From Candidatus Latescibacterota bacterium (GTDB lineage Bacteria; Latescibacterota; UBA2968; UBA8231), in contig OZ241867.1 in NCBI GenBank assembly GCA_965203175.1, positions 2,848,001-2,912,000 on the forward strand: 64,000 nucleotides of DNA, written 5' to 3'. The position numbers were made by a program, and so were the translations under genes. The notes under the pieces are model-generated. The model was not told where the DNA came from, searched no databases, and saw nothing but the letters and a program-made list of their open reading frames with translations. This document shows, piece by piece, positions 26,844-64,000 of this stretch; the first letter of the stretch is position 1; each line of letters opens with the position of its first letter.

Positions 26844-28372
26844 AGCAGATGCGCCAAGATCACGGCGAGCAATAAGCCGAGCGAGACCCAGCCAAGCAGG
26901 ATTTGGACGCTGGCGAGGAGTTTGAGCTTGCCAGTCGCGTACCAGGGGTAGGGATCGGTTCGGGTGAAGGCGTGGATGCTGAAGCGTATGCAGTCGGCGA
27001 GGGTGGGGTGTTCATCGCCGTTGACGGACTGCAAGATACTAGGGACCAGCCGATAGATCAGCGCCCAAAGGAGGATGCTGCCGAGGATGCAGAGGACGAG
27101 TTGTAGTGGGGAGGTGCCGTAGCGCGAACAGAGATTCCACAACTCTAACGTCCAACGTTGGGGCACGGCCCAGCTAAGGGCGCGGCGCTGGCGGTCTAGA
27201 CGCTCGACCTCGCAGGCTACAGCGTCGTCTTTTAGCCCTTGGGCGAGGAAGTGATGCCGCAGGCTGTTGTAGGCCGGGTCGAGTGCGGCGACCAACGTCG
27301 AGTCCGTAGTGGCTAGGCGGTGGCGCATGTGCGCCCAGCGGACGCGGAGGAGATCAAAATAGGCTTGCTGCAAGTAGAGTTGGGCGCTTGCGGCAAAGGT
27401 CGAATCGGCTTGGGCACTTGGGTGCAGATCGAGGGTGCCGATAGCGGCGCGGCGCAGGTCGAGGGTGCGGTTGAAAAAGGAATTGAAACGCAGGGTCCGC
27501 GCTTGGACGCCGCTAAAATCGGCTTCTTTGCGGAAGTAGCTGCCGCCAAAATCCGCGCGGGCAAAGTCCGCATCGGCGAAGTGGGCGGCTTGGGCAAAGG
27601 TGAAGTCGGCGAAATGAGCTTGGTCGGCGAAGGTGGCTCGGTTGAAAGAAATCTCCCCGTCGGCGCGGGCCGCGGCAAAGTCGGCCGCGGCGAAAAACTG
27701 GGTTCGCCAGAAGAGGGCGCGTTCGGCAAAGCGGGCACCGGCAAAGGAAGCCGGGCCATTCCAACGGGCGTCCTTGAAGGAGGCTACGCCGGCAAAGCGG
27801 GCGTCGGCAAAGTCGGTCTGGCCGGCGAAGTGAGTGCCTTCAAAGTAGGCAGCGGTCGCAAAATGGGTGCGGACGAAGCGGGTGGCAGCGGCGAAACGGG
27901 CGTTGATAAACGAATTGGGACCAGCGAAATCGCCGTCGGTAAAGTCGGCGTCGGCACCGAAGACGGCCTGTTTGAAATTGAGGTGCTTGCCAGACCGGCT
28001 TGCGCGCAGGCCGAATGCGCTGTGGAAATGGGCATTTGTTAGCGAGAGACCGTTGGCGAATGTGGTGCGCTCACCTTGCACCGGACCGAGGAAGACCACG
28101 TTGTTGAGGGTGACCTCGTCTAAGAAAAAGACATCGTCGAACTGGAGAGAGGCGCGCACGGTGTCGAGACCGGCAGTTGGAGCGTAGAGCGGGCCGACGA
28201 CAGCGGTGGCGCGGAGGTGGATCGGCTCTTGTGCCCGTTGTAGCCTCGAGAGCAAGTCAGCCGCCGGAAGCAGGGCATAGGTCTGGTCGGCGATGGTGGT
28301 GTCGGCGCGGTCAGCGCGTGCGCCAAGCGGTATTAGGAGGAGGCAGCAAAGCGCCCACAGGGGGGTGACCAT
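26840..28372 (-). CDS. Pentapeptide-repeat protein with a C-terminal ion-channel-like two/three-TM module
   Basis: Tandem A.F..A.F.. repeats, then 'RYGTSP' followed by hydrophobic helices. Overlaps both neighbours (translational coupling). Confidence 0.8.
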   Translation of the reverse strand: MVTPLWALCCLLLIPLGARADRADTTIADQTYALLPAADLLSRLQRAQEPIHLRATAVVGPLYAPTAGLDTVRASLQFDDVFFLDEVTLNNVVFLGPVQGERTTFANGLSLTNAHFHSAFGLRASRSGKHLNFKQAVFGADADFTDGDFAGPNSFINARFAAATRFVRTHFATAAYFEGTHFAGQTDFADARFAGVASFKDARWNGPASFAGARFAERALFWRTQFFAAADFAAARADGEISFNRATFADQAHFADFTFAQAAHFADADFARADFGGSYFRKEADFSGVQARTLRFNSFFNRTLDLRRAAIGTLDLHPSAQADSTFAASAQLYLQQAYFDLLRVRWAHMRHRLATTDSTLVAALDPAYNSLRHHFLAQGLKDDAVACEVERLDRQRRALSWAVPQRWTLELWNLCSRYGTSPLQLVLCILGSILLWALIYRLVPSILQSVNGDEHPTLADCIRFSIHAFTRTDPYPWYATGKLKLLASVQILLGWVSLGLLLAVILAHLL

Positions 28373-30066
28373 CAGCTTTGGGCGGTGGTGTACTGCTTCA
28401 AATGAGCTTCGTGGATGGTTATCGGATAGATTTTACGCAGACTACGCACGTATTCGACGTAGCGGTTCTGGGCCTTGTCGATGAGTACGTAGGCCCGGGC
28501 GCGTCGCTGTGAGTCCTCATTGTAGGGGATGTGTTCGCGTTGGCGGTCCACGACTTTGAATACCGAATAGCCCCGCTGGGTGCGGACTGGGCCGCCCACT
28601 TGGCCGACCTCGAGGTCTTGGGCCAAGTCCGAGACGCCAGGGAAGAATTGCTCGGTGTAGATATTGAAGTTGATACGTCCATTGTGGTGGAGGACCTCAG
28701 CGCGTTTGCTGTGGCGCACGGCGAGGGTTTCGGCCTCGGCTTCGGTGGCTTGCGCCAACTCAGTGAACAGATGCTGGGCTAGCGAGTCGCTGGAAACCAG
28801 AATTTCGATGGCGACAGTGGTCGTGGGTTTGGTAAATTTTTCCGGATGCTCGTCGTAGAAGGTGCGCGCCTCTTCTGGGGTGACCGATAGCTGTTGGTCA
28901 ACCATGATCTTGCGGAGGCCGGTCACCATAAGTTCTTGGCGCTTGGCGGCGATGCTGGCGCGGAACTCGGGGTCTTGGTCCAGCCCGGCGCTGATGATCT
29001 CAGACATGAATAGGTGTTCGGGGATGACTCGGCGGTCGAGCAAGTCCGCAGCGTTCGCAGTGTCAATCAGCATTTGCGGCGCTATTTTCATCTGGCGGAT
29101 GGTCTCGACGAAATTCCCCAAGCCGATGGGGTTTCCCTTGCTAAAGGTGCAGACAGGCAAGGGCGCGTCGGCCTCGGCGAGGGCGAATTCCTCGCCGGTG
29201 AACTGGCTAATGCGCTCGGCCAATAGGGCGAGATTCTGCGGCTGCGGTTGGGGCTGGTATTCGCCTCGCAGCGAATCGAGCATGGTTTGCAGGCGCTGGT
29301 TGCGCTGGGCGATGAGCAATTCTTCGCGGATGCGGTCCTCGGAGGCTTCGAGCGGTGCCGGGATTTCGTCGAGGATGGTGAAGATGGCAAACTTTTGCTC
29401 GCGGGCTACGAACATCGACACCGGCGGAGCAATTTCGCCGATTTCTAGGTCGGCTACTTTGGCTACGACTTCGGGCATGAGTTGGTCGCGCAACTGGTAC
29501 AGCCCAGTATCGCCGCCGCGCTCGGCGCTTTCGCGGTGGACCGAATGAGTGCGGGCTAGTTGGTGAAAGTCGGCACCATCTTGAAGCTGCTGGTAGAGAT
29601 CGTTGGCCTCTTCTTCGGTATCGACCATGATGCCGCCGAGGCGGATTGAGCGGTCGCGGCGGGTTGCGCGGTAGTGGGCTTCGACCATTTCCTCGGTGAT
29701 GTTCAGCTTGCTGATGATTTCTCGTTGCTCGTACAGGCGCAGGATGCGCGAGCGTTCATAGTTGGTCAACTCGTCGATAAACCAAATCATATTTTCGACG
29801 TTGGACGCCTGTGCTTCTTGGAGAAGTAATTCTTTGTCGATTAGGCTATTGAGCAGATTGCGGGACACGGCCAATGGCGTGGCCCCTTGGCGCATACCTT
29901 CGGGGATCTTGGAGGAGAATTCGGCGAACTCAGCCGCGGTGATCGACTTGTCGCCAGCCTCGGCAACAATGAGTTCGGCCGGCGAGGCCGGCGGTTGATC
30001 CTGACTGCCGCAGGCGGCGAAGAGCCAACTGAGTAAGAGCAAGGCGTTGAGATGCTTCATTTTCAT
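28372..30066 (-). CDS. Parvulin/PpiC-type peptidyl-prolyl isomerase lipoprotein (PrsA/SurA-like foldase, two PPIase modules)
   Basis: Lipobox FAAC, 'GADFHQLARTHS...SAERGGDTG', 'EEARTFYDEHPEKF' and 'GQVGGPVRTQRGYSVFKV'. Confidence 0.85.
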   Translation of the reverse strand: MKMKHLNALLLLSWLFAACGSQDQPPASPAELIVAEAGDKSITAAEFAEFSSKIPEGMRQGATPLAVSRNLLNSLIDKELLLQEAQASNVENMIWFIDELTNYERSRILRLYEQREIISKLNITEEMVEAHYRATRRDRSIRLGGIMVDTEEEANDLYQQLQDGADFHQLARTHSVHRESAERGGDTGLYQLRDQLMPEVVAKVADLEIGEIAPPVSMFVAREQKFAIFTILDEIPAPLEASEDRIREELLIAQRNQRLQTMLDSLRGEYQPQPQPQNLALLAERISQFTGEEFALAEADAPLPVCTFSKGNPIGLGNFVETIRQMKIAPQMLIDTANAADLLDRRVIPEHLFMSEIISAGLDQDPEFRASIAAKRQELMVTGLRKIMVDQQLSVTPEEARTFYDEHPEKFTKPTTTVAIEILVSSDSLAQHLFTELAQATEAEAETLAVRHSKRAEVLHHNGRINFNIYTEQFFPGVSDLAQDLEVGQVGGPVRTQRGYSVFKVVDRQREHIPYNEDSQRRARAYVLIDKAQNRYVEYVRSLRKIYPITIHEAHLKQYTTAQS

Positions 30067-30320
30067 GGTGCTGGGATACTCCTAAATTTTGAGGAAAAGA
30101 AAAAAACGAATATAAAGAAAAAGGGGGGGAATGAAAGGTAAAACGCCGGGGCGATAGGATGAGGCCAGGTGGGTAAAGATGCTTGCGGCGTTAAGGGCTA
30201 TTGATTATAAATAGTTGGCCAACTAGGAGATCGCGCAGTAGTAAGTTGCGCATAATGTCTTTAGTAATAAAGAACTTATTGGATTTTCGGATCCGATTCA
30301 CTTGTCGACAACTCTTGCCT
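30067..30320. promoter_or_regulatory. Divergent promoter region between the PPIase operon and the surface-protein locus
   Basis: AT-rich intergenic DNA between head-to-head genes. The TTG start at 30201 in the ORF track has no support. Confidence 0.5.
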
Positions 30321-32546
30321 ATGAAACGCGCTAGTGTATGTGCTCTCTTATTGTGCCTACTCGGAGGCTGGTCGGCTGTCGCTGAAGTCGTGATCGTCGG
30401 CAGCGAAGGCGGTTTGGATTGGGCCAGCGGTGGTGGAGAGATTCAAGCTACGGTCATCCGCAGCGCGACTTCGGTGGAGAATACCAACGCGCCCGGCGGG
30501 GTTATAGACTTCAATGCGGAGGGTTTCAGAAACTGGATTTTTCCCCAGCGCGCTGATACCACGCTCAATATCGCCGTCGGCGCTAATTCCGAGGCCCGCG
30601 GTGGCTCGATCACCTCGCCTAATACCATCAACATCCGGCCGGAATTGCCTAGCATCATCGACAATGATGGCGAGACAGCGCTGGATTTGCGCGCCAGTGC
30701 CGGTGGCCAGAGCGCGCGCGTGTTGGGCATTATCATCGATCTGGACTTAGGTGCCCGCTTCGGGGTCAATCGCTTCAAGTTTTTTCCCCGCAACGCCGAT
30801 CCAGCGTTCCCCGCTCCGTCATTCCCATACCAGAACGATTTTATGCGCGCCTTTGAGATATTTATTAACGACGGTACACCCGAGACCCAGCGCGAGGGGG
30901 TGCCGATCCGCGAGACCGTGGTACTGGTCAACCAAAACGAAGATCCGGTAGTTGACGTGCACATCCCGCCCCAGTACGTGCGATTCGTGCGGCTCAAATC
31001 GCTGACGTCAACGGGCTTTGACTTGGCTGAATTCCAAGTCTTTGGCACCGGCTTTGTGCCCGAGGCCACTTATATATCCAATGTCTTTGACTTCGGCGAC
31101 CTGTCGCTCTTTGGAACGCTGCGCTGGGTCGAGCAGAAAATGGGAGACAGCGGGCTGTCGCGGGTCTTGATCCGCACGCGCACTGGCAACGATCCGCAGC
31201 CGGTCGAATACAACAAAATTCGCCCAGGTGAGCAGATCTTTCGCTTGGGCGGTGGGTCCAGACAGACGGGGACTACGGCCCGCGGCGACGAAGTGCCGTG
31301 GAAATTTGCCGCTGACGTCGAGGATGCCGAGTTGAAAACCTTAGTTGAGACGGTACTCGACAACGAAGATGTCGATTTGCGCGAGGCGCTGCAGATATTC
31401 AAGGATCTGCCACTGGATCAGCAAGAGCAGATCTCACTGACGGCCGCCGACTTCGGCCGGTTGCGCAATGAGGATAAGGGCAATATCCGCAACGATGTGA
31501 CCAACTGGAGCGCTTGGTCGCCTCCCTATCCGGTCAGCGCACTGGTTGAGTCGGACGCCGATTTGGCCGACGCATTGCAGGGGATACCGGTGGTCTCGCC
31601 GAGTCCGCGGCGCTATTTTCAGTTCGCGATTGAGTTCTCTAGCGACGAATTCGAGTCGGCTACCGGCGTTGGGGGGATTTCCTTTGAGGTACTGCCTTCG
31701 CCTTTTGCCGAGGAGTTAATCGCCGAGATCGTCCCGCGCCAAGCGGCGCTGGGCAAAAAGACGGACTTTACCCTTGCCGTGTTGAGCAAACTTCGCCCAG
31801 GACTCGACCGCGGCTTCAATCGGCTACAGATTGATACCCCACTCAAGGTCGAAAACGTGGGGCTGATAGAAATTCGGCGCCCGGACGGCACGGCGGATGA
31901 GGCCGACTTCAGCGGTGCGACACTCGACCAGTTGCCGCTCCAGCGCGGCGACTTTGCGGTGGTTGAGGCCGCCGACAACAGCTTTATCTTCGAGTTTCCA
32001 ATGATCGCCGAGGATAGCACCGAGGTGCGAGTTACCTTCGACAACGCGGTGCTGCGCTTCGGCACGACCTTTACGACGCGGGCGTTCAATTCGGGTGAGG
32101 AAGTGCAGATTGCCCAAGATGTAGTATCGGGCAACGCCGCCGATCTGGGTGAAGCCGATCCGGACTTACAGCCTTTGGGTACGCCTTTCAGCGGGAACCT
32201 CTCGGTGGCTGTGCCGATCGTTGGAGACCTGCTGGTCAATATAAGTGCGGTCCCCGGGGCCTTTAGCCCCAACGGGGACGGCATAAATGATCAAGCTGCG
32301 GTCCAGTACGACATTACCAATATCGCTCGACCAACCGATGTAGAAATCGTCGTGCGCGACTTAGCGGGTCGGCCAGTGCGGAATCTCTACCGCGGACTCG
32401 ACAGCAGCGGACGCCATGCTCGTCTTTGGGATGGCAAAAACGACGCCGGGGAGGCATTGCCCCCAGGCAACTATCTGTTCAGTGTGACGCTGGACGCTGG
32501 TACTGGCCAGGAACGCGGCGTCGGCATGGTCAGCTTGGCTTATTGA
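30321..32546 (+). CDS. Secreted protein, divergent member of the paralogue array (discoidin-like domain, Ig-like domain, FlgD/CHU_C-like C-terminal domain)
   Basis: Signal peptide MKRASVCALLLCLL. 'DLDLGARFGVNRFKFFPR', 'LAEFQVFGTGF', 'RTRTG', 'WSAWS', 'SPSPRRYFQF' and 'FSPNGDGIND'. Ends SLAY. Confidence 0.8.
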   Translation: MKRASVCALLLCLLGGWSAVAEVVIVGSEGGLDWASGGGEIQATVIRSATSVENTNAPGGVIDFNAEGFRNWIFPQRADTTLNIAVGANSEARGGSITSPNTINIRPELPSIIDNDGETALDLRASAGGQSARVLGIIIDLDLGARFGVNRFKFFPRNADPAFPAPSFPYQNDFMRAFEIFINDGTPETQREGVPIRETVVLVNQNEDPVVDVHIPPQYVRFVRLKSLTSTGFDLAEFQVFGTGFVPEATYISNVFDFGDLSLFGTLRWVEQKMGDSGLSRVLIRTRTGNDPQPVEYNKIRPGEQIFRLGGGSRQTGTTARGDEVPWKFAADVEDAELKTLVETVLDNEDVDLREALQIFKDLPLDQQEQISLTAADFGRLRNEDKGNIRNDVTNWSAWSPPYPVSALVESDADLADALQGIPVVSPSPRRYFQFAIEFSSDEFESATGVGGISFEVLPSPFAEELIAEIVPRQAALGKKTDFTLAVLSKLRPGLDRGFNRLQIDTPLKVENVGLIEIRRPDGTADEADFSGATLDQLPLQRGDFAVVEAADNSFIFEFPMIAEDSTEVRVTFDNAVLRFGTTFTTRAFNSGEEVQIAQDVVSGNAADLGEADPDLQPLGTPFSGNLSVAVPIVGDLLVNISAVPGAFSPNGDGINDQAAVQYDITNIARPTDVEIVVRDLAGRPVRNLYRGLDSSGRHARLWDGKNDAGEALPPGNYLFSVTLDAGTGQERGVGMVSLAY

Positions 32547-32552
32547 GGTGCT

Positions 32553-35375
32553 ATGGAACGAGGGAGAGCAGTGTTGAAAGCGATGCGAAGTCTTGCAGTG
32601 ATCGGTGCTTTACTTGGCTTAACTCCAGTGCATGGGCAGGAGGACTACCAGGGTCGGTTAGGGGTACAGCGCGGCGGTGCTGTCAGTTTTGAGCCTATCG
32701 GCCCAGGCGTAATATTTGGCGCACTCGATCCGACGGTCAAAAAGTGGTACGTGCCGCAGGAACTCTTCGTAGACTACGGCTGGCGTCAGTGGGAGTACTC
32801 CAACTACGCCCGCACCCCGTACGAGCGCTACGTCAACACTACCCGCGAGGGCGACTACTTCTACGATGTGTACGGCAATTTTACCACCCATGGTTGGCTG
32901 ATCTACGACTGGCGTCAGGATCAGCCGTTGCCCTTGGGCAGCGGCATCTTCCAGGGTTCGCGTTTTAATACTTGGTTCAATGCGGTGACCATCAGCGGCG
33001 ACTCACAGGGTCAGTACAACTACGCGATCACGGTTGGCGACCGGATTCGCACGACGCTGACGCCGATGACGTTTTCCAAGCCGGACTTCAACGGGGTGCA
33101 GATCGACTTTGCCTCGGACAAGTATCAGGCGACGATCCTCGCCTCGCGCATCAGCGAGCCGATCCGCGGCTCTTCGCAGGGCATTGGCGGCAGCACCGAG
33201 CCGGTCTCCCAGACCAATACGACCTCGATGTTTGGTGGACGGGCGACGTTCCAGGTTGGCGACTTCATCACGCTGGGGGCCACACTAGTCGATGCCCGCA
33301 ACGCCAATACCACCCTTGATCTCTTCTCTGGCGACCTGATCGCCGGCAGCCTCACCGCTGGGCAGAGCACGACACCGCTGACGGCGATTGCGGTAATCCT
33401 AAGCGACGACTCGCCCGAAGACGGCGAGGGAGGTGCGGCCCTGTTCAGCCACGACGTGCGGATCACCAGCCGCGACTTCGACACCGGCAAGGAGACCGTT
33501 TCCACCTTGCAGGAGGTGGTGCGGCCCGGTTCGCAGTGGCCGGTCATCTTCGGCGGGTTCCGGCGTCCGGGCTTTTTGGCTGCGGATGGCCCAGAGCGGA
33601 TTATCGTCAACTACGACTTCAACGACCCGGCTTATATTGGTCCAGATCCGACGACCATTGTCGGAGTGGACTTCAACTACGTGGTGGCCAACGACTTCAA
33701 AGTCGAATTGTGGTCCGACCGCCAGACGGGCCAGCGGGCGGTACCAGCGGCCCCGCTGACCAGCGAAGTAATCGACAACAGCCAGCCGGCCTTTGTGGTG
33801 CTGCGGCGCGCCGAGGGCAATGTGAAGGATATCTCCAATTTGCAGCGGATCAAGTTCGATTATGGCTTGCCGACTGCCAACCTAATCGGCGGCTTTACCA
33901 TCGAGGGGGCCGATGCCTTCGGCTTTGACTTCTACGGCGAGTGGGACCGCAACAAGCGCTATGCTCAGTACCCCAACGCCGCGCTGTTCAACGAGGGGAA
34001 GAAACACGCGATCTCTTCAGAGTCATCCGACGCTTGGTACTTCAGCGCCTCGCGCGACGACTTTCCCTACTTCCTCTATGGCGAGGCCTACGCCATTGAT
34101 GAGGCTTATTCGACCACTACCTTTCTGGTCAACGCCAATGGCGATGTGCAATACGACAATAGCCAGCGGCACTTCTACGAGTTCGTCGACGACAACGACG
34201 ATCAAGATCGCTACCCCGACTGGGTTCGCTTCGGCACGATCAACGACCGGGCAATCTATCCGGGTTGGGACCAGAACAACGACTTCATCTCCGACTTCAA
34301 CCAGAACGACAATGCCACGGTAGGCAATATCACTCCCGATTACGAGGAGCCGTTCCTGCGCTACAACGTCGATCGGCCGGAGTTTCTCTTTGGCATTGAC
34401 CTCAACAACAACAACTGGATCGATCGCTTTGAGGACGATGACTTACCCGACTTTCCCTATAAACCCGATCGTCGGGGATTCAATGTCTTTGGTGGGGTGC
34501 ACCTGCTGCCGGAAGCTCGGCTGATTGTCGGTCGCACTGATGAAGAGTCGCAGACGACCGACGCGACCAACGCGACCAACTATGCGATGTTCACCTTTGA
34601 CAAGAACTACGCGGATCTGGGGCGCCTGCGGGTCTTCGATATGATCAAACAGGCCAAGGATACTATCCCCGATGCCCGCCGCGAGCCGACGCCCTTTGAG
34701 GGTGCACCGATCCAGCCCGTAGTCCGAGATATCCTCCCGGCGCAGGATACTTGGATCAACACCGCCTTTGTGCAGTTCGACTACAAGGGCATTGAGGGCT
34801 TGAACTTGGTCAATAAGCTCAAGTGGGAGACCTTCCGCCAGACCCAAGCCGAGACCCGCGACGCCAACGGTCGCCTGATGGAGGACAATTCCAGCTTTTT
34901 GGGCTTGATCAACAAGGTTGACTACACCTACGGCTTGGGACGTTTGGACTTGCAGCCGAGGTTCAAAAGCGAGCTTCTGCGCCAGACGGCTTTTCTCGTT
35001 GCAGAAGACGATCGCGAAGAATGGACGGCCACGGCGCAGTTGATAGCGACCTTGCCGGTACTGCGCCACACGATTGTGCAGGCCGGGCTAGAGCAGTTGT
35101 GGTTCAGCGACCAGAGCGTGGACGAGAACGCGCTTATTGCCGGCGGTCGCCAGCAGGAGACGGGCGACCTGAGTTCGACCAATGTGGCCGTACAGCTCTC
35201 GACCACTTCGGATTATTTGGGCTACCGGCTGACTACCCAGATTGGTCTGCGCTACGGCCGGATTTTCACCGAACAGGTGATTGAGGACAGCGAACGACCG
35301 GGTACTTTCGTGATTGGCGACGAGACCAGCAACGAGACGACCAGTTTTATTACGGTCTTCGCCGGGCTGGAGTAA
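32553..35375 (+). CDS. Hypothetical exported protein, probable outer-membrane beta-barrel with acidic Ca-binding-like motifs
   Basis: Signal peptide, alternating amphipathic strands in the C-terminal half, DDNDDQD/DQNNDF/DLNNNNW motifs. Ends ITVFAGLE. Confidence 0.6.
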   Translation: MERGRAVLKAMRSLAVIGALLGLTPVHGQEDYQGRLGVQRGGAVSFEPIGPGVIFGALDPTVKKWYVPQELFVDYGWRQWEYSNYARTPYERYVNTTREGDYFYDVYGNFTTHGWLIYDWRQDQPLPLGSGIFQGSRFNTWFNAVTISGDSQGQYNYAITVGDRIRTTLTPMTFSKPDFNGVQIDFASDKYQATILASRISEPIRGSSQGIGGSTEPVSQTNTTSMFGGRATFQVGDFITLGATLVDARNANTTLDLFSGDLIAGSLTAGQSTTPLTAIAVILSDDSPEDGEGGAALFSHDVRITSRDFDTGKETVSTLQEVVRPGSQWPVIFGGFRRPGFLAADGPERIIVNYDFNDPAYIGPDPTTIVGVDFNYVVANDFKVELWSDRQTGQRAVPAAPLTSEVIDNSQPAFVVLRRAEGNVKDISNLQRIKFDYGLPTANLIGGFTIEGADAFGFDFYGEWDRNKRYAQYPNAALFNEGKKHAISSESSDAWYFSASRDDFPYFLYGEAYAIDEAYSTTTFLVNANGDVQYDNSQRHFYEFVDDNDDQDRYPDWVRFGTINDRAIYPGWDQNNDFISDFNQNDNATVGNITPDYEEPFLRYNVDRPEFLFGIDLNNNNWIDRFEDDDLPDFPYKPDRRGFNVFGGVHLLPEARLIVGRTDEESQTTDATNATNYAMFTFDKNYADLGRLRVFDMIKQAKDTIPDARREPTPFEGAPIQPVVRDILPAQDTWINTAFVQFDYKGIEGLNLVNKLKWETFRQTQAETRDANGRLMEDNSSFLGLINKVDYTYGLGRLDLQPRFKSELLRQTAFLVAEDDREEWTATAQLIATLPVLRHTIVQAGLEQLWFSDQSVDENALIAGGRQQETGDLSSTNVAVQLSTTSDYLGYRLTTQIGLRYGRIFTEQVIEDSERPGTFVIGDETSNETTSFITVFAGLE

Positions 35376-35376
35376 T

Positions 35377-38355: not shown

Positions 38356-38368
38356 ATAAATCCACGAC

Positions 38369-40111: not shown

Positions 40112-40119
40112 GAAAATCA

Positions 40120-40268
40120 TTGACAAATTATCTAATCCTTTTTTTGTTAGTTGGCGGTTTTACACAGGGAGTGTTCGGCGGAAATGCTCTCAAGCTAAAG
40201 GCGGTCGCCAACAACACTAGGTGGTGACGCCGCTTTTTATTTTCAACCTTACATAGGAGGTTTCAGCA
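40120..40268 (+). promoter_or_regulatory. Promoter and structured leader of 40269-41195
   Basis: Perfect TTGACA at 40120-25 (-10 box not clear), an imperfect hairpin 40201-40233 followed by a T-tract, and AGGAGG RBS at 40255-60. Confidence 0.55.
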
Positions 40269-41195: not shown

Positions 41196-41231
41196 GCGCG
41201 AACAGCTAGTAGTTTTTAAGTACCAATTGAG

Positions 41232-41270
41232 GAGGGAGGGTAGAGTTGCTCTACTCTCCCTCTTTGTATT
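41232..41270 (+). terminator. Rho-independent terminator
   Basis: GAGGGAGGGTAGAG-ttg-CTCTACTCTCCCTC stem (14 bp, one G-U) followed by TTTGTATT. Confidence 0.8.
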
Positions 41271-41308
41271 ATGATTCCTACATTCTACAAACCTTGGGGA
41301 TCGCGAGC

Positions 41309-43234: not shown

Positions 43235-43236
43235 GG

Positions 43237-47781: not shown

Positions 47782-47791
47782 AGGGGCATTA

Positions 47792-50404: not shown

Positions 50405-50413
50405 AGGGCATTA

Positions 50414-53020: not shown

Positions 53021-53048
53021 CGCTTCTCCTCTCAGCGGAGAGAGTACT

Positions 53049-56143: not shown

Positions 56144-56144
56144 C

Positions 56145-56528
56145 ATGGCCCATGACGAAGCAGCAGCGGTAATCGCAGCAGCGAAAATCGCCACCGCCGC
56201 GTATTGCGCCGGCGATATAGACGCCTTTCTGCCGTATATCCACCCCCAACGCACTACCTTTGGACCCGACGGCAGTCGTCTGGCGGCTTTCGACGCTAAA
56301 GCGCTGCGGGCCGGCATGGCCGCAGGCCGTGTCCAGGCGCAGGTGGAATGGCGGGATCTCCAAGCCACCGTACATGGCGATGTCGCGGTCAGTACGGGGT
56401 ATCTGGTCGGCACTTGGACCATCGGCGACAGCGTCGAGGAAGGTACCTGGCGCGAAACCATCGTCTGGCTCAAGCAGGACCAGCGCTGGCAGGTTTCCCA
56501 TTTGCATGTATCCGCGTGTCTGACCTGA
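56145..56528 (+). CDS. NTF2/SnoaL-like (DUF4440) protein
   Basis: ATG after AAGGAG. 'AYCAGDIDAF', 'HGDVAV.TGY' and 'RETIVWLKQD.RWQVSHLHVS'. Confidence 0.85.
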   Translation: MAHDEAAAVIAAAKIATAAYCAGDIDAFLPYIHPQRTTFGPDGSRLAAFDAKALRAGMAAGRVQAQVEWRDLQATVHGDVAVSTGYLVGTWTIGDSVEEGTWRETIVWLKQDQRWQVSHLHVSACLT

Positions 56529-56561
56529 GAAGGCTGAACCAAGAAGCGAACGGAGGTCAAA

Positions 56562-57344
56562 ATGAGCGCAGAGCGGTCGTTTCATCTAGGGTATTCCACG
56601 ATCACTTGGGGCCCCACACCGGATTTGGACAAGGTGTTTGGCACCATCGCCGACGCTGGCTGGGAAGGGGTGGAGTTCATCAGCGTTTCGATGGACTGGC
56701 TGGGCACGCCCCGAAGGCTGCGCGGCTTGCTCGATCAGCACGGGTTGCCGCCGGTGTGCCTGTTCGGCAGTGTGTCGCTGGCACCCGACGCCGAACAGGT
56801 GCTCGCTCGGCAGCAGCGCATCATCGAGTACGCGGCTGAGTTGGGTTGCCCCAATTACTGCTTTCTCGGCGGCAATCGCGTGGCGCTACGCCAGCCCAAC
56901 GACGACGAGTTTAAACGCTTGGCTGAGCAGGCGGAGACCCTCATCGATTACGCCGAGCCTCTGGGGGTGAAGGTGACCTATCACGCGCATCCGCGCTGCA
57001 CGGTCGAAAGCGAAGAGGAGCAGGACAAGCTCCTCGCATACGCCGAGCGGCTGCAGATCTGCATGGACGTGTCGGTGGCGGCTTTTATGCAGGAAGACGC
57101 GGTCGCCCAGATCTTCAAATACCGCGAGCGCATCGGCTACGTGCACATGAAGGACTGGGCTCAGGGCAAGTTCTGCGTGATGGGGCAGGGCACGGTGGGG
57201 CTGGATTTCGCCGCGATTCGCACGGCGCTTGAGGAGATCGGCTATCAGGGCTGGGTAATGGGCGAGTTGTCCAGCTATGCAGACACCGACGCGGATAAAT
57301 CGTGTCGGGCCAATCGGGAATTCCTACGCTCGGTGGGTTACTGA
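56562..57344 (+). CDS. Sugar-phosphate isomerase/epimerase (xylose-isomerase-like TIM barrel, IolE-like)
   Basis: 'ITWG', 'AGWEGVE', 'YHAH', 'IGYVHMKD', 'MGQGTVGLDF' and 'GYQGWVMGE'. Confidence 0.88.
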   Translation: MSAERSFHLGYSTITWGPTPDLDKVFGTIADAGWEGVEFISVSMDWLGTPRRLRGLLDQHGLPPVCLFGSVSLAPDAEQVLARQQRIIEYAAELGCPNYCFLGGNRVALRQPNDDEFKRLAEQAETLIDYAEPLGVKVTYHAHPRCTVESEEEQDKLLAYAERLQICMDVSVAAFMQEDAVAQIFKYRERIGYVHMKDWAQGKFCVMGQGTVGLDFAAIRTALEEIGYQGWVMGELSSYADTDADKSCRANREFLRSVGY

Positions 57345-57365
57345 GCGTTATACAAGGAGCAGACA

Positions 57366-58613
57366 TTGAAAAAGATTCCACTTTGCTTGATCGGCTGCGG
57401 CGGTATGGGCCATCGCCATATCCTCGCCTACAAAGAACTGGAGAACAGCGGCATCGGCAATATCGAGCTGATGGCCGTATGCGACCTCAACCCCAAGAAC
57501 GCGGATCTGGGTCGGCGGGAAGTAGAGCGCCTCTTCGGTCGCACGCCCTTGGTCTTCACCGATCTGGGCGAGGCCGTGTCGCACCCCGACATTGCGGCGG
57601 TGGACGTGGCCACTGATCCCGCGGTCCACCACCAAGTGGCGGTGCCGGCGCTGGAGGCCGGCAAGCATGTCTTGTGCGAAAAGCCGCTGGGCATCACCAT
57701 TCGCGCCTGCACGGCGATGATTGCGGCGGCCGAAAAGAGTGGCGTGGTGCTGGCCACGGCTGAGAATTTGCGGCGCGACCCACCCAATAGATTGGCGCGC
57801 GCGATCCTCGACCACGGGCTTTTGGGCGACCCTTACCTGATGATCCACAACTGTCTAGGCGGCAACAACAAGATGGTCATCACCCCGTGGCGGCATCTCA
57901 AGGACAAAGGGGCGATCGGTCTAGATATGGCGGTGCATTTTACCGATATCGTGCAGTACTACATGGGTGCCTTCGACCAGATCTACGGCACTGGTTGGAT
58001 CATCGAGCCGGTGCGCTATAAGCCCGATGATTCCGGTCTCCAACTCGAGTCCTATGTCGAGCGGCTCAAGACCTTTCCCGATTCGATTGAAGCTACCGGC
58101 GAGGATTCGGTCTGCGCGATGTACAAGATGCAGTCCGGGGCCATGGTGCAGTTTACCTACGCGGCCGGCGGTCGCGGCAGCACCGGTTTTGAGCGCAGCG
58201 TACACGGCCGCTTGGGGGCGTTGTATGCGCCTGGGGACCGCAATGGCCGGCCGGTGGTCCTGCGCCGCGAGGGCCAACAGTTTGAGGGCGCAGAGATTTT
58301 GCCGTTATTGCCCGATTTTCAGATGAGCGAAATCACCGAGCGGCTTTTCGGCGCGAAGGTGGTGACCTACGAGCTGGACTTCCCGCCGATTGATGCCAAG
58401 CACATGGCCATCGAGATGCACGACTTCGGCGAGGCGGTCCTCAAGGGCACCAAACCCGAGGTCGATGGCCATCTGGGCATGACGGCGGTGGCGGCGATAT
58501 ACGGGGCCTATGAGTCGATCCTCGCTGGCCGGGCCGTGACTATGGATGAGATCCTCTCGGGCCAAGTGCGGGCCTACCAACAAGAGATCGACGCAGCGCT
58601 CGGGCTGGACTGA
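57366..58613 (+). CDS. Gfo/Idh/MocA-family oxidoreductase
   Basis: TTG start after AAGGAG. 'LIGCGGMG', 'ALEAGKHVLCEKP' and 'DMAVH'. Confidence 0.92.
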   Translation: MKKIPLCLIGCGGMGHRHILAYKELENSGIGNIELMAVCDLNPKNADLGRREVERLFGRTPLVFTDLGEAVSHPDIAAVDVATDPAVHHQVAVPALEAGKHVLCEKPLGITIRACTAMIAAAEKSGVVLATAENLRRDPPNRLARAILDHGLLGDPYLMIHNCLGGNNKMVITPWRHLKDKGAIGLDMAVHFTDIVQYYMGAFDQIYGTGWIIEPVRYKPDDSGLQLESYVERLKTFPDSIEATGEDSVCAMYKMQSGAMVQFTYAAGGRGSTGFERSVHGRLGALYAPGDRNGRPVVLRREGQQFEGAEILPLLPDFQMSEITERLFGAKVVTYELDFPPIDAKHMAIEMHDFGEAVLKGTKPEVDGHLGMTAVAAIYGAYESILAGRAVTMDEILSGQVRAYQQEIDAALGLD

Positions 58614-58647
58614 AGATTTATTATACGGGGAGCAAGGAGACGCAACC

Positions 58648-59805
58648 ATGGAGCGCAGTACTGACCGCATCTTGACTACCCACGTTGGCAGCTTGGCACG
58701 TCCTGTGGACTTGCTCGACCTGATGAAGGCCAAAGTCAACGGCAGACCCTACGACGAGGAGGTCTATGCTCGGCGAATTTCGGCTGCCGTGGCCGAGGTT
58801 GTCAGCAAGCAGGTCGAGAGCGGCATCGACATTGTCACCGATGGCGAGCAGAGTAAGCTCGGTTTCTCGACGTACGTGAGCGAGCGGTTGGCCGGTTATG
58901 AAGCGAGACCGGGTGCGATCGACTCCGCTGAATTTTCGCAGGAGGTGGCCGCTTTCCCGGAGTATTACGAGCGCTACTTTGGCGAGGCCATGCACGGGGG
59001 TGCCGTCGCCAAAATAAACCCCGTCGCGTGCATCGGCCCCGTCAGTTATAAGGGGATTGATGCCCTGAACGAGGACATTGAAAATCTCAAAGCCGCGGTC
59101 GCGGGAGTGGACAAGGTGGATGTCTTTATGCCCTCGGTGGCGCCGAGTGGGGTCGGCGGAAACGAGTATTATCCGACTGAGGAGGAGTATCTGCAGGCGG
59201 TCGGCGAGGCGATGCGCACGGAGTATAAGGCGATCGTCGATGCGGGCTTCATCGTGCAGATCGACGATCCCTGGATGACAGTGGTCCGCGGCGACGGGAG
59301 CTTGAGCCTAGACGACCGCCTGCGGAAGATCGAACTGTCCGTCGAGGTTCTCAACCACAGCTTGCGCGGTATTCCCCCCGAGCAGGTGCGGCTGCATACT
59401 TGCTACGGGATCAACGAAGGTCCGCGCATCCACGACGCGGCGCTCAAGGACATCGTGGGGATCATGCTCAAGGTGAACGCCGGTGCCTATTCGTTCGAGG
59501 CCGCCAACCCGCGGCACGAACACGAGTACCACGTCTGGGAAGACGCCAAACTGCCGGAGGGCAAGTTGATTATTCCAGGAATGGTCGCACACGCGAGCAA
59601 TATCGTCGAGCATCCCGAACTCATCTGCGAGCGCATCGTCCGCTTCGCCAACATCGTGGGACGAGAGAACGTGATCGCTGGGACCGATTGCGGCTTTTCG
59701 ACCCAGGCTACCTATACCCCAGAAGTCCATCCGACCGTGGTGTGGGCCAAGTTCCAAGCCATAGCCACCGGTGCACAGCTGGCGACGAAGCAGCTCTGGG
59801 GATGA
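58648..59805 (+). CDS. Cobalamin-independent methionine synthase II family (core MetE-like) protein
   Basis: 'ILTTHVGSLARP', 'GIDIVTDGEQ', 'QIDDP', HTCYG (HxC), 'FEAANPRHEHE' and 'GTDCGF'. ATG after AAGGAG. Confidence 0.92.
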   Translation: MERSTDRILTTHVGSLARPVDLLDLMKAKVNGRPYDEEVYARRISAAVAEVVSKQVESGIDIVTDGEQSKLGFSTYVSERLAGYEARPGAIDSAEFSQEVAAFPEYYERYFGEAMHGGAVAKINPVACIGPVSYKGIDALNEDIENLKAAVAGVDKVDVFMPSVAPSGVGGNEYYPTEEEYLQAVGEAMRTEYKAIVDAGFIVQIDDPWMTVVRGDGSLSLDDRLRKIELSVEVLNHSLRGIPPEQVRLHTCYGINEGPRIHDAALKDIVGIMLKVNAGAYSFEAANPRHEHEYHVWEDAKLPEGKLIIPGMVAHASNIVEHPELICERIVRFANIVGRENVIAGTDCGFSTQATYTPEVHPTVVWAKFQAIATGAQLATKQLWG

Positions 59806-59901: not shown

Positions 59902-61848
59902 ATGTACCAACGCCTCAGAGATTCCTTAGCTGTATGGTGCGGGTTTTTGCTGTTCATTGTCGGCCCTCTCGACGCGCTGACAATCTACCGGCTCGGGGGT
60001 AGCGATTTGCCGGCTCCAGAGTTAGCGGCGCTTGAGGGGGTGGAATTCGTGCAACTAGCGTGGGCCGACGTAGCTGAAGATCGGCACGGCCAGACCGACC
60101 TAATCGAAGTAACCCCCAATCACATCGCACCGCGCCAACTCGACCCGACGGTCAACCTGACGCCGCTGTTGCCCCAGCCCGATTTCCTCGGGGATATTTT
60201 CTATCTGACTTGGATTGGCTGGGGTGGTCCCGATGTCGATGACTGGTTTATCTGGGACGAGGATCCCAATACGGTCTATCTGGGCGATGGGCACTTCGCG
60301 ATGCATGGGCCCAAACACAAAAGTCTGATTTTCGACCTCGGCGGCCTGTTTTTTCTCGAGCGAATCAAGTTCTACCCCCGCGAAAGACATCGGCACGACC
60401 GCTTCGTGGAGAGCTTTACCATTGGCATCAGTGACGGCGATCCGTTCAAAGATCCCCATCGAGAGCTACAGGCTGGAGTGGGGGGATTCGGCAGGGGGTC
60501 TGTCGTCGCCTTTGACGTGCTCTACGACATCAGGGAAAACACCGAGCCTATCATTGAGTTAGAGTTGCCAGCGCAACCTGTACAGAAGGTACTCTTTCGA
60601 GCAGCGGAGAATACGCGGGGCATCTGGGAGCTGGCCGAACTTGAACTCTACGGCGCGGGTTTTGCCCCCTTTGCTGGCTACCAAAGCAATGTCATTGATC
60701 TAGGCCGAGCGGTGTCGCTGGGCGATCTGAGCTGGTCGGGTGTGGTCGAGCCGGGTGCCCGCGTTGCCTTGACTATGCGCAGCGGCGCTACGCCGACGCC
60801 CAACATCTACTGGCGCTTCACCTTTCGCGGCGATGAGCAAAGTCGCTTCGATACCCAGGGCCGGGTGTTGACGCGCAAAGCCTATAACAAGCTCAACAAG
60901 GGCGAGCGGGCCGGGATCACGCCCGATACTCAGCAGTGGGAAGCTTGGAGCCAGGCGTACGATTTCGCGGACAGTACGGGGGCGATGCAGGCGAACCAGC
61001 CTAGGCGCTACGTGCAACTGCGCGCCGACTTTGAATCGCTCAAGGAGGCGGGCGGGCGGCTGGACTATGTACAGTTCAGCGTCTCGGACCCGCCGGTGGC
61101 CACCCAAGTGCTAGCCGAGATCTCTCCGGCGCAGGTCAAAGCGGGCGAGGTGACTTCCTTTACCTATGCGGTATTGCCTCAATTCGAAGAGGACGATTTG
61201 GGATTTGACACCATTGAGATTGAGACGCCCGTGCAGGTGAGGGAGGTTGACGCGGTGCGCATTAGCGAGATGGAGGTAGGCTTTGACGTCCTGCGCTCGG
61301 ACGCGGAGGGCTTTGCCCTGCGCATCCCGCGCATGGACTTGCAGCGCACCGAAGAACTGGTTGAGGTGGATTTTCAGGTGGAAGTGTTCAAGTTCGGCAC
61401 GATGTTCACCGGCCGGGTATCGGACAGCGAAAGGCCCTTTGAGGTGCATCAGCGGCTCACCGCAGGCGACGCCGATCCGCTAGTCGAGGGCAACACGCTG
61501 AACGTAGGTTTGGTCGAAGTGGAACACAAGGCAGCCAACGCGCTCAGACTAGCCTCGCCCGTGTTTACGCCCAATGGCGACGGAGTCAACGACGAGTTGC
61601 AGATCGAATACGAGCTGTTGAATCTCTTGGGAGCGGTACCAGTGGCATTGGATCTGTACGATTTGTCGGGCCATCGCTTGGGAGCAGTGTATCGCGGTAC
61701 AGCGCAGAGCGGCCGATTTCGCTTGGAGTGGGATGGGGTGTTGGCAAGTGGGGAACGGGCAGTGCCGGGGTGCTACTTGTTGCGCCTAGCGGTGACTAGC
61801 GACCGAGGTGGAGAAATCCTCCAGCGCGTCATCGCGCTGGCTTATTAG
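59902..61848 (+). CDS. Type-A array protein A4
   Basis: ALTIYRLGG, closest to A2 in its N-terminal half, 'FTPNGDGVND'. Ends IALAY. Confidence 0.85.
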   Translation: MYQRLRDSLAVWCGFLLFIVGPLDALTIYRLGGSDLPAPELAALEGVEFVQLAWADVAEDRHGQTDLIEVTPNHIAPRQLDPTVNLTPLLPQPDFLGDIFYLTWIGWGGPDVDDWFIWDEDPNTVYLGDGHFAMHGPKHKSLIFDLGGLFFLERIKFYPRERHRHDRFVESFTIGISDGDPFKDPHRELQAGVGGFGRGSVVAFDVLYDIRENTEPIIELELPAQPVQKVLFRAAENTRGIWELAELELYGAGFAPFAGYQSNVIDLGRAVSLGDLSWSGVVEPGARVALTMRSGATPTPNIYWRFTFRGDEQSRFDTQGRVLTRKAYNKLNKGERAGITPDTQQWEAWSQAYDFADSTGAMQANQPRRYVQLRADFESLKEAGGRLDYVQFSVSDPPVATQVLAEISPAQVKAGEVTSFTYAVLPQFEEDDLGFDTIEIETPVQVREVDAVRISEMEVGFDVLRSDAEGFALRIPRMDLQRTEELVEVDFQVEVFKFGTMFTGRVSDSERPFEVHQRLTAGDADPLVEGNTLNVGLVEVEHKAANALRLASPVFTPNGDGVNDELQIEYELLNLLGAVPVALDLYDLSGHRLGAVYRGTAQSGRFRLEWDGVLASGERAVPGCYLLRLAVTSDRGGEILQRVIALAY

Positions 61849-61862
61849 AGGACAAGAGTGCA

Positions 61863-64000
61863 ATGAAGACCATTTGGACTTTTGCCTGCGCCTTGTTGTT
61901 GGGCGCGGTGTGCGCCAGCGCTCAAGGAAAGGGCCATCGCGTCACCGCCGACCAAGTCGTAGTCAATACTCAACAGCACTGGCAGACCTGGTCCTTCGGG
62001 ACGGGCACCCTAGACATTGGGACTGACGGTGAAGTTCGGCCACGGCGGCTGCGCAAGAATATCAATGCCGTGGAGAATGCCCGCGAATTCTTGCGCCTGA
62101 ATCCTCCCAATTACATCAAAAAAGACGCGGCCGATATTGAACTCAGCGACGGAATCCGCGCGGGCTCCAATGCGTCGGGTGTACTGGCTCTCTTTGACGG
62201 CGATATGGAGACTTATTGGGAACCTGACGCGCTCGAGTTAGGTGTCGATTTGGCGACGCAGTGGTGGTTTATCGTCGATTTGGGCCGCTTCGTCATGGCC
62301 CGCAAGATCGTGCTCAAGTTTGTCGATGAAGCACTGGGCGACCCCTTCTTGCAGTTTGATGTGCTGGTCTCGGAAGGCCGCCAACCCAAGGGCAACAGCC
62401 GTTCCGAGACACCGGAATTCAGACGCGTGGCGCGCACCTTGGTGCCCAACAAGCACCAGCGGCTCTTTGAGATCGAACTGGAGTACGCAGAAGAGTTTGC
62501 GGGCATGGGTCTGCGCTTCGTGCAGGTGCTCGTGACCGGCAGCGACTTTGCCCAAGGGCGGGAGATCAGCCGCGACGAGTACGAGGCCCTGTTAGAGGCA
62601 GACCGGGGGGCAATCCTCTATCACAAGCTGCTGCCGAACGGCAATGAGGCCGCGGTCAAAAAGGAGGTCTATGACCGACTCGAAGCGTCGCGGCAAGGTT
62701 CCGTGCGCTATTTTGTGCGCGAAAGGCCGCGCTTGGCCGAGTTGGAAGTGTGGGCCGAAGGCGACGAGATCCTGATCAATACGGTCGAGCGCGGGGGCAT
62801 GGTCACCTCGACCCAATCGCTGGCGCTGGCGAGCCTGTTCGACGGCAATGTGCTCAGCTTCAGCGAGGTAATTTTCATCTTCTCTCCCGGGCAATTAAAG
62901 TCACCAGAGGGCGAGGTGTTTTTCGATATGGGAGCCTCGTTCTGGATCGACGCCTTCCGTATGGCTCTGGGAGCGCGCCAGCGCAATTTTGAGGGTTATA
63001 GACTGGATTTCTCCAATGGTGAGCGCGAGGCAGACGGCAGCCTCAAGTGGACTTCTGCGGCCGCAGTGAGTGGTGCGGAAGTCCTCGGTGCCGGCACGAT
63101 TGGTACCCAAAGCGTAATGGGCAACGACTTTAGCCCCCTAAGGGCGCGTTTTTTCCGCTTCGTGTGGAATCAGATTGTGCGCGGGGTGGGCAATAGCGGT
63201 GCGGCCATTTTGGCTGATCCGTCCGAGTTGCAGCTCTACGGGGAAGGGTTTATGTCGGAGGTAAGCCTGACTTCGGATCTGGTGCGGCTGGGCGGCAGCC
63301 GCAATTTGGTCTCGCTCGAATGGGACGCGGATGTGCCGCCGGGCACGAGTGTGCTGGTGCAAACGCGCACTGGCAACGAACTAGCCGAGAACCTGCGCTA
63401 TTTCAAAAAAGACGGCACTGAAGTGAGCAAAGACCAGTACGATAAGCTGCTCTCGATATTCAAGGGGGATATTATAGCCGAGGAAGTAGTGGGCGGAGAT
63501 TGGAGCGACTGGAGCCAGCCGGGCGAAGATCCCAGCGGCAGCCCGATTGCTTCGCCGTCGCCGCGCGAGTTCCTAGAGATCCGAGCAACCCTGTTGTCGG
63601 ACGCTCCTGCAGTGAGCGCGACCTTGCGTTCGATCCGGCTCAATTTTACGCATCCGGTGGCGCAGAGCCTGACGGGAGAGGTGGCACCGGCGGTGGTAGA
63701 GACGCTGGGGGAAGAGCAGCGCTTTTCGCTTTTTGTGCGGCCGAACTTCGCCCCCCGAGATCCCGGCTTTGACGAGTTCTTGCTGGTGGCTCCGGCGGAC
63801 ATGAGGCTTGGGTTCGACGGTCTGTATGCTGGTGCGGGCGAGGTGTTGGCCAGCCGCGATCTGGACGGGTTGGCGGTGGCTGATGTCGAGGTTGTGGCGA
63901 CGAGCGGCGACAGCCTGCGCTTGGCTTTTCCGCTAATCGGTCCGGAGTCAGGGGTGGAGGTGTTGCGGCTGGACTTTACCACGGCACTGTTTGCGGCCGG
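61863..64000 (+). CDS. Type-B array protein B4 (3' truncated by the window end; absent from the ORF track)
   Basis: Manual translation from ATG 61863 gives MKTIWTFACALLLGAVCASAQGKGHRVTADQVVVN...FDGDMETYWEP...QWWFIVDLGR...RPRLAELEVWAEGDEIL...GGDWSDWS...LRLDFTTALFAA, with no stop before 64000. Confidence 0.88.
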   Translation, partial: MKTIWTFACALLLGAVCASAQGKGHRVTADQVVVNTQQHWQTWSFGTGTLDIGTDGEVRPRRLRKNINAVENAREFLRLNPPNYIKKDAADIELSDGIRAGSNASGVLALFDGDMETYWEPDALELGVDLATQWWFIVDLGRFVMARKIVLKFVDEALGDPFLQFDVLVSEGRQPKGNSRSETPEFRRVARTLVPNKHQRLFEIELEYAEEFAGMGLRFVQVLVTGSDFAQGREISRDEYEALLEADRGAILYHKLLPNGNEAAVKKEVYDRLEASRQGSVRYFVRERPRLAELEVWAEGDEILINTVERGGMVTSTQSLALASLFDGNVLSFSEVIFIFSPGQLKSPEGEVFFDMGASFWIDAFRMALGARQRNFEGYRLDFSNGEREADGSLKWTSAAAVSGAEVLGAGTIGTQSVMGNDFSPLRARFFRFVWNQIVRGVGNSGAAILADPSELQLYGEGFMSEVSLTSDLVRLGGSRNLVSLEWDADVPPGTSVLVQTRTGNELAENLRYFKKDGTEVSKDQYDKLLSIFKGDIIAEEVVGGDWSDWSQPGEDPSGSPIASPSPREFLEIRATLLSDAPAVSATLRSIRLNFTHPVAQSLTGEVAPAVVETLGEEQRFSLFVRPNFAPRDPGFDEFLLVAPADMRLGFDGLYAGAGEVLASRDLDGLAVADVEVVATSGDSLRLAFPLIGPESGVEVLRLDFTTALFAA

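Follow-up and report, generated by a model that had tools for sequence, protein, structure and literature searches.

Lectin-like proteins with type B T9SS tails and unnamed giant outer-membrane barrels form a recurrent gene cassette in Latescibacterota

How does a bacterium bring a whole series of paralogous secreted proteins to its surface, and what is the task of the large outer-membrane proteins encoded among them? The question is raised by a locus in a 64,000-nt stretch of contig OZ241867.1 from a Candidatus Latescibacterota bacterium (the window; gene coordinates are window positions, with starts partly re-chosen). The original prediction, made from the nucleotide sequence, listed nine paralogous secreted proteins (D, A1-A4 and B1-B4), two outer-membrane (OM) proteins of about 950 amino acids (aa), called OM1 and OM2, a membrane+TPR protein, a CBM9-like protein (C308) and a divergently transcribed lipoprotein with a double parvulin, i.e. 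peptidyl-prolyl isomerase (PPIase), and all of these are present as placed (Table 1). It took the set for a self-contained export and anchoring pathway. Our analysis leads to another answer: the locus extends a known secretion system, that of type IX (T9SS), and is not a new one. The reading that we prefer is that T9SS-exported lectins are held on the surface by dedicated giant barrels, and we judge the chances that this analysis has it right to be about even.

The C-terminal domain shared by the nine proteins, recognizable by the motif PNGDG.ND, matches the Pfam families CHU_C and FlgD_ig. When the last 110 aa of each protein were scanned alone with CHU_C (PF13585; Pfam gathering score 27 bits), seven of the nine window proteins reached the cut-off with 29.2-39.0 bits (D 34.1, A1 30.6, A2 31.5, B2 34.1, B3 29.2, A3 39.0 and B4 35.3) and the remaining two, B1 and A4, both scored 26.8. 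Of the corresponding A, B and D proteins in the cassettes of this genome, described below, 101 of 121 scored at least 27 bits and 119 of 121 gave E ≤ 1e-3, while none of the 121 matched Por_Secre_tail, the profile of type A tails. At the level of structure, residues 497-648 of an AlphaFold2 model of A2 can be superposed on PorU's C-terminal domain (Z 12.3, root mean square deviation (rmsd) 2.3 A, 100 residues). Judged by this domain, the nine A/B/D proteins are putative type B cargo of the characterised T9SS.

The two large proteins encoded between D and the A and B genes are matched by no Pfam or NCBIfam model at E ≤ 0.01, and OM2 is 39.6% identical to OM1 over 1026 columns. Predicted structures cover A2 among the A/B/D proteins and OM1 among the barrels. 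The AlphaFold2 model of OM1 (pLDDT 80.9, pTM 0.77) has about 26 strands, the strand count and topology being taken from the DSSP string, not from coordinates. Counting strands back from the C-terminus, short turns alternate with long loops, and two inserts fall at surface-loop positions: a beta-rich one of about 180 residues (253-430) and an acidic one of about 125 residues (516-639), the latter holding most of the invariant residues of the barrel family. Neither these inserts nor the N-terminal 100 aa of OM1 gave anything usable in Pfam at E up to 10. Foldseek matched OM1 to SlpA (8ae1, E 1e-8), MtrB (6r2q, 9e-8) and LptD (5iv9, 2e-7) at 7-9% sequence identity and TM-scores of 0.13-0.26, and the fold searches returned only large barrels of this kind and porins. 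OM1 is therefore like SlpA of Deinococcus, MtrB and LptD in size class and fold and unlike them in its low identity, the lack of a family match and its gene partners. Neither OM1 nor OM2 matches Plug or TonB_dep_Rec, both of which the same scans detect in a receptor of the window (20926-23598), and neither matches the PorP/SprF models PF11751 and TIGR03519. The family comprises 62 genes of 860-1013 aa in this genome. An exhaustive search of 1.84 billion representatives gave 1211 clusters (50% identity) at E ≤ 1e-3, of which the best 150 are unnamed; among 8000 candidates scored, 1005 barrel relatives were found at E ≤ 1e-5, all of them unnamed. On the predicted fold and these searches, OM1 and OM2 belong to a family of large outer-membrane barrels that is without a name.

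Cargo and barrel genes recur together throughout the genome. With the window proteins as queries, tblastn found 298 family genes in the 6.58-Mb genome, of which 293 read intact: 62 barrels, 73 A, 23 D, 67 B, 37 PPIases, 28 of the C308 type and 3 of the TPR type. Three of the five genes set aside are intact open reading frames (ORFs) as well, two of these with CHU_C. The barrel-containing gene groups amount to 40 cassettes, and the cassette gene families occupy 9.5% of the genome. A barrel stands together with A or D and with B in 34 of the 40, and 33 contain a PPIase gene; C308 occurs in 22 and a homologous family, F4, in 11 others, the two never being found in the same cassette. The usual cassette has one or two barrels, two A/D genes, one B, one PPIase and one CBM9-like gene, three gene orders recur, and in most cassettes D is the gene directly 5' of the OM gene. 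The largest of the 40 is the window cassette, which has five A/D and four B genes; the window locus is a surface cassette of the Latescibacterota in enlarged form. The identities of D, B, A, C308 and PPIase proteins to the window copies rise with the identity of the barrel (Spearman rho 0.63-0.90). One divergent cassette (number 12, G000:C1:2790207-2812676) has two barrels at about 25% identity, together with ExbB, two ExbD, a 1090-aa TPR/YfiO-like protein and a CBM9_1-positive protein.

The same association appears when the tails are taken as the starting point. The genome holds 134 full-length CHU_C matches, 125 of them in A/B/D genes, and a barrel gene lies within 15 kb of 100 of the 134, as compared to 20.8% of random genome positions. 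For type A tails this applies to only 15 of 80; the type A tail profile has 103 matches in the genome. Some A-B gene pairs and one seven-gene A/B run are distant from barrels (G000:C1, e.g. 5048217-5052855 and 5505825-5521026), and A/B genes far from barrels are orphan cargo.

The association also holds in other genomes. Around barrel relatives we collected 79 loci from records labelled Latescibacterota, Handelsmanbacteria or Gemmatimonadota-type metagenome-assembled genomes; within 10 kb of the barrel gene an A gene was found in 70 of these, D in 67, C308 in 64, PPIase in 61 and B in 52. In a phylum sample of 151 genomes, which are related and hence not independent samples, 94 have the barrel and 81 the A family, and all 81 A-positive genomes are also barrel-positive. 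The co-occurrence of the OM, PPIase and TPR genes with the A and B families that had been proposed for the locus thus holds for the OM and PPIase genes, and for the CBM9-like gene with them, in the 40 cassettes and the 79 loci, and for the OM gene with the A family also genome by genome. It does not hold for the membrane+TPR protein, which has two paralogs of its membrane domain in the genome and a gene in only 15 of the 79 loci, all of the orthologous subtype; it is not a general part of the cassette. SprA, the T9SS component, was matched in 150 of the 151 genomes, and the lone SprA-negative genome (G026) is also without the barrel. Two families of the same class have neither barrel nor A in any genome (0 of 30 and 0 of 19), while SprA is present. 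Since SprA occurs in families without barrel or A, the cassette is an accessory to a T9SS that is found phylum-wide.

The genome of the window encodes core parts of this system away from the locus. SprA (TIGR04189) was matched with 490 bits in a 2133-aa frame elsewhere in the genome, and PorU (NF033707) with 632.5 bits at G000:C1:2958744-2962755, about 47 kb past the window end. The PorP/SprF model TIGR03519 has one match, beside PorU and outside the cassettes, with 21.3 bits as compared to a cut-off of 90.55. The frame with this weak PorP-family match (21.3 bits) has 378 aa, follows PorU and is perhaps PorV.

These core genes and the tails bear directly on the idea of a self-contained pathway, in which the barrel would be the translocator of its neighbours, working like an usher or a two-partner pore with the parvulin as dedicated chaperone and independently of the T9SS. 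Every cassette has a barrel and a chaperone-type gene of its own, which fits such a scheme, as does the appearance of the FimD usher among the Foldseek matches of OM1 (E 1e-5) and of FhaC and CdiB among the VIA matches (Z 11.6-12.2). However, these usher and TpsB fold matches are no better than those to porins, no usher, POTRA or two-partner secretion family was matched in Pfam or NCBIfam, and SprA is present in all 94 barrel-positive genomes. The locus is like chaperone-usher pili in that a periplasmic folding helper and a large barrel are encoded with secreted subunits; unlike in those pili, the helper is a parvulin PPIase and not of the PapD type, there is no usher match and the subunits carry T9SS tails. 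Because the tails of the cargo belong to the T9SS type B family, self-contained secretion is the least likely of the readings, and we regard it as very improbable. The cargo is thereby assigned to a characterised pathway, while the barrel family and the cassette are still unnamed.

What, then, do the barrels do? In Bacteroidota, type B cargo needs a PorP/SprF barrel, to which it binds and whose gene usually lies directly downstream (PMC9143113; PMC12618676). The latter paper also gives 12 type B substrates for Flavobacterium johnsoniae and describes orphan cargo genes there without a nearby barrel. As type B tails cluster with the barrels and no PorP/SprF gene was found at cut-off, the simplest interpretation is that the role of PorP/SprF falls to the giant barrels. 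From what has been described above on folds, on the family of the tails, on the core genes of the T9SS and on gene co-occurrence we infer the course of export, the binding of cargo by the barrel, the client of the chaperone and the ligand as follows. The nine A/B/D proteins would pass the inner membrane through Sec and take on their fold in the periplasm, and the single T9SS of the genome would export them across the outer membrane by recognising their type B C-terminal domains. The barrels of about 26 strands would take the place of PorP/SprF, receiving cargo from the translocon and holding it on the surface, where the two large conserved acidic surface inserts may bind it, perhaps through calcium. 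The parvulin lipoprotein of the cassette would most likely chaperone the giant barrel, or the cargo, in the periplasm. On the cell surface, several lectin domains of the CBM32 type and a CBM9-like protein would in this way form a complex that binds glycans for nutrient capture or attachment.

The closest known arrangements are SprB-SprF of F. johnsoniae and PG1035-PorP-PorE of Porphyromonas gingivalis. As in those systems, the cargo has a Sec signal peptide, adhesin-like passengers and a CHU_C-type C-terminal domain, an outer-membrane barrel gene adjoins the cargo gene (here directly after D), and the T9SS core genes lie elsewhere in the genome; orphan cargo without a nearby barrel, reported for F. 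johnsoniae (PMC12618676), occurs here also. Unlike in SprB-SprF, there are at least three cargo genes per one or two barrels, with a parvulin lipoprotein and a CBM9-like protein added to each cassette, and the genome has 40 cassettes as compared to the 12 type B substrates given for F. johnsoniae (PMC12618676). The barrels themselves differ from PorP/SprF in their 860-1013 aa, their roughly 26 strands and their two large surface inserts, and in matching no PorP/SprF model.

Several observations weigh against the proposal that the giant barrels hold T9SS-exported lectins. A PorP/SprF barrel has about 300 aa, so that the barrel family described here is about three times that size, and since it matches neither PorP/SprF model the analogy is one of gene position alone. 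PorP_SprF (PF11751) has no match in the genome, which is a weak blank as 14 control genomes were also silent. The NCBIfam type B model TIGR04131 stayed below its 35-bit cut-off, with a best score of 26.2 bits for A3 and 18-23 bits or no match for the other window proteins, so that the tails appear to be type B domains diverged from the Bacteroidota seed set. Furthermore, 34 of the 134 type B tails have no barrel gene within 15 kb, and the nine cargo genes of the window locus face two barrels, which means that there is no one-to-one pairing. The rise of cargo identities with barrel identity could be explained by duplication of whole cassettes alone. When residues 98-940 of OM1 were co-folded with the last 150 residues of D, the score was 0.00 (mark 0.32), a result that weighs neither way.

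A different function for the same genes is suggested by the similarity of OM1 to SlpA. The barrels might anchor an S-layer-like or adhesin coat, like SlpA in Deinococcus, in which case the many cassettes and the tandem A and B genes would provide antigenic or host-binding variety in a sponge-associated bacterium, and the lectins would serve attachment to the host matrix and not feeding. The best fold matches of OM1 are indeed SlpA and the S-layer deinoxanthin-binding complex (Foldseek E 1e-8; VIA Z 15.0, 395 residues, rmsd 8.2 A), but with low TM-scores (0.16-0.26), as any large barrel gives, and no SLH or S-layer family was matched in Pfam or NCBIfam. The A and B paralogs are mosaic, as a variable coat would lead one to expect. 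Between A1 and A2 the lectin part is 41-53% identical and the C-terminal third 76-88%, and the trend is reversed between A2 and A4; B2 and B3 share 91-100% identity apart from a single block of 50 columns (67%) and the tail (68-70%), the tail of B2 being nearer to that of B1 (88%) than to that of B3. Such patterns suggest gene conversion or recombination between copies. No invertible promoter or recombinase was seen in the locus in a search that was not systematic. As for the habitat, 14 public runs contain at least 0.45 of the sampled words of 30201-40111, and of these four carry the label sponge metagenome, two the label metagenome and one the label marine metagenome, with seven bearing coded organism names; the bacteria are apparently sponge-associated. 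Taking both sides together we consider a variable surface coat unlikely.

The passengers of the cargo proteins lead to the question of sugars. The AlphaFold2 model of A2 (pLDDT 80.6) shows a CBM32-type domain, an Ig-like domain and the final C-terminal domain, which agrees with the domain layout that had been predicted. Residues 85-255 have the CBM32 fold, with a match to CpGH89 CBM32-6 at Z 13.4 (rmsd 2.5 A, 123 residues) and to many further CBM32 entries at Z 10-12. Pfam F5_F8_type_C (PF00754) remained below its 28.2-bit cut-off, with 20.2-25.8 bits for B1-B4 and no match for A1-A4 and D. Because the Pfam scores stay below cut-off, the discoidin-like beta-sandwich that the original prediction had recognised is identified through the fold of A2, which bears it out. 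On this model the A-type proteins are CBM32-like lectins by fold and predicted sugar binders.

Lectins beside a large barrel recall polysaccharide utilisation loci (PULs), and the barrel could be a substrate channel that works without TonB and is fed glycans by the surface lectins and the CBM9-like protein, nearby inner-membrane transporters importing the products. This would be compatible with export of the lectins by the T9SS. Some 40 diverged cassettes per genome, with CBM32- and CBM9-type parts, are reminiscent of PULs, and stand-alone DUF6785/DUF6784 membrane proteins occur in or beside 14 of the 40 cassettes. Among the flanking ORFs of at least 150 aa, of which 129 of 152 were scanned, we found sugar ABC transporter parts, an FGGY kinase, enolase-superfamily enzymes and UxuA, as well as a PL4 lyase, a GH5 enzyme, a sulfatase and an HpcH aldolase; four sugar-type enzymes lie within the window locus itself. 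However, the degrading enzymes are sporadic and no fixed part of the cassette, no SusD-type match occurred among the flanking ORFs scanned, and OM1 and OM2 lack the plug and barrel domains of TonB-dependent receptors. A pore of 26 strands, if unplugged, would also leak. In comparison to SusC/SusD loci, the cassettes are alike in being many, diverged and paralogous, in joining an outer-membrane barrel with surface proteins of carbohydrate-binding type and in often having sugar-catabolic or transport genes nearby. They are unlike them in having no TonB-dependent plug/barrel match, no SusD-type match (flank ORFs scanned) and no constant enzyme set, and in that the binding proteins carry T9SS tails and are not lipoproteins. 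We regard PUL-like uptake as an alternative of some weight that is nonetheless improbable. Somewhat more doubtful still is the specific proposal that each barrel, with three lectins and a CBM9-like protein, forms a TonB-independent capture-and-entry machine for one glycan class.

The features of the locus are collected in Table 1.

Table 1. Genes and other features of the window locus, in window coordinates
Feature	Position	Strand	Remark
PPIase lipoprotein, double parvulin (SurA/PpiD/PrsA-like)	28372..30066	-	divergent to the rest
D, secreted lectin-like protein with putative type B T9SS C-terminal domain	30321..32546	+	ORF listed from 30201; likely start 30321
OM1, predicted giant outer-membrane beta-barrel, unnamed family	32553..35375	+	
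OM2, second predicted giant barrel, OM1 paralog	35377..38355	+	ORF listed from 35314
Membrane+TPR protein, polytopic domain (residues 1-~400) and C-terminal TPR repeats	38369..40111	+	
C308, secreted CBM9-like protein	40269..41195	+	
Terminator-like 18-pair hairpin with T-rich tail	41228..41266	+	directly 3' of C308
A1, CBM32-like lectin with putative type B C-terminal domain	41306..43234	+	ORF listed from 41246
A2, CBM32-like lectin with putative type B C-terminal domain	43231..45177	+	
B1, longer lectin-like protein with putative type B C-terminal domain	45181..47781	+	
B2	47792..50404	+	ORF listed from 47636
B3	50414..53020	+	
A3	53046..55010	+	ORF listed from 52968
Four metabolic genes between A3 and A4: SDR, xylose-isomerase-like TIM barrel, GFO/IDH/MocA oxidoreductase, Meth_synt_2-like	55175..59805	+	Pfam
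A4	59902..61848	+	
B4	61863..64000	+	reaches 64466, i.e. 466 bases past window end

With the likely starts, the intergenic gaps measure 1-25 bases, apart from three wider ones: C308 is preceded by 157 bases and followed by 110, and A3 is followed by 164; OM2 starts one base past the OM1 stop. Several listed ORF starts over-extend into the gene upstream. The genes therefore mostly abut, as had been noted, except that the four metabolic genes part A3 from A4. In D the signal peptide follows M41, and B4, which runs beyond the window, is complete in the genome with 867 aa. Among themselves the A copies are 48-69% identical (A1 and A2 63%, A4 and A2 69%) and the B copies 59-89% (B2 and B3 89%), identities that indicate paralogy far beyond chance; D shares 27% identity with A1. 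A pentapeptide-repeat membrane protein adjoins the PPIase gene (26840..28372, minus strand), and the cassette most similar to this one has a paralog of that protein at its corresponding end (genome 5699861-5701396); it may be part of the subtype to which the window's cassette belongs. Farther upstream, a 2132-aa ORF (14405..20803, plus strand) combines Peptidase_M28 and MacB_PCD/FtsX permease parts with DUF6785 and DUF6784.

The accessory proteins were classified by profile and neighbour searches. The PPIase matched Rotamase_2 with 81.3 bits in two stretches (cut-off 27) and Rotamase with 67.6 bits (cut-off 21.7), with a weak SurA_N_3 match, and carries the lipobox LFAAC, as read from the sequence. 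No NCBIfam equivalog was found at cut-off; by these profiles the protein is classed as a parvulin of the SurA/PpiD/PrsA kind. C308 has no Pfam match of its own. Its nearest ESM Atlas clusters have PF06452 (CBM9_1) in 13-94% of their members, it is related to the F4 family with an hhalign probability of 100 (E 5e-47), and the profile of the C308 family matches, at E 3.6e-10, an ORF of cassette 12 that scores 39.3 bits with CBM9_1 (cut-off 23.4). From these Atlas neighbours and the CBM9_1-positive homologue in cassette 12 we consider C308 to be CBM9-like.

The membrane+TPR protein matches TPR_1, TPR_2 and TPR_11 at residues 420-540. Its membrane domain has no Pfam match even at E 10, and the ESM Atlas places it at 0.86-0.87 to unnamed clusters, which is under 0.9 and serves as a lead only. 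TPR-containing genes do lie in or beside 28 cassettes, but they form a mixed group of PMT_2 (GT-C-type) membrane proteins with TPR tails, FG-GAP/ASPIC proteins and TPR lipoproteins. In several class II cassettes, polytopic proteins of the PMT_2 type with TPR tails stand between the barrel gene and D (G000:C1, e.g. 1166985-1168952 and 2535184-2537403). Such PMT_2-type proteins may serve glycosylation of the cargo.

Contigs from four metatranscriptome runs of three studies, at 90% likeness or more, cover 30, 30, 29 and 23 of 30 bins of the locus. Pieces only 90-95% alike make up 100 of 132, 106 of 159, 81 of 114 and 44 of 73 in the respective runs, and these come from relatives. Single contigs span D-OM1, OM1-OM2, OM2-TPR, C308-A1 and A2-B1, which we count as a weak hint, since such coverage is proof neither of transcription nor of one common transcript. 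In all four runs the summed contig depth over C308 (40162-41471) was several to tens of times that of the neighbouring bins, a measure that does not rank genes or prove transcription; C308 may be a separate, strongly expressed unit. A promoter scan of 29900-41400 gave nine sigma-70-like sites as compared to 5.1 ± 2.3 in shuffled sequences, and none of them lies in the gap between the PPIase gene and D.

Type B cargo beside a barrel gene of its own was known already. The literature searched describes neither the barrel family nor the addition of a chaperone and a CBM9-like protein, nor an arrangement on this scale; no paper was found on Latescibacter with type IX secretion or T9SS, and the passages of PMC4454575 that deal with the Latescibacter outer membrane name non-specific porins only and make no mention of the cassette. 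For type B T9SS cargo, the giant barrels would be the first candidate partner from beyond the Bacteroidota, and they suggest that a barrel family with no relation to PorP/SprF can act as shuttle or anchor. At the same time a large unnamed family of outer-membrane proteins is defined, in cassettes that take up nearly a tenth of the coding capacity of an uncultured member of the Latescibacterota. If the cassettes should prove to be capture-and-entry machines, the SusC/SusD principle of one cassette per substrate would have been invented independently, built upon the T9SS and with each barrel having a chaperone of its own. Should they be specific for substrates, the cassettes would serve as markers of what Latescibacterota feed on or adhere to.

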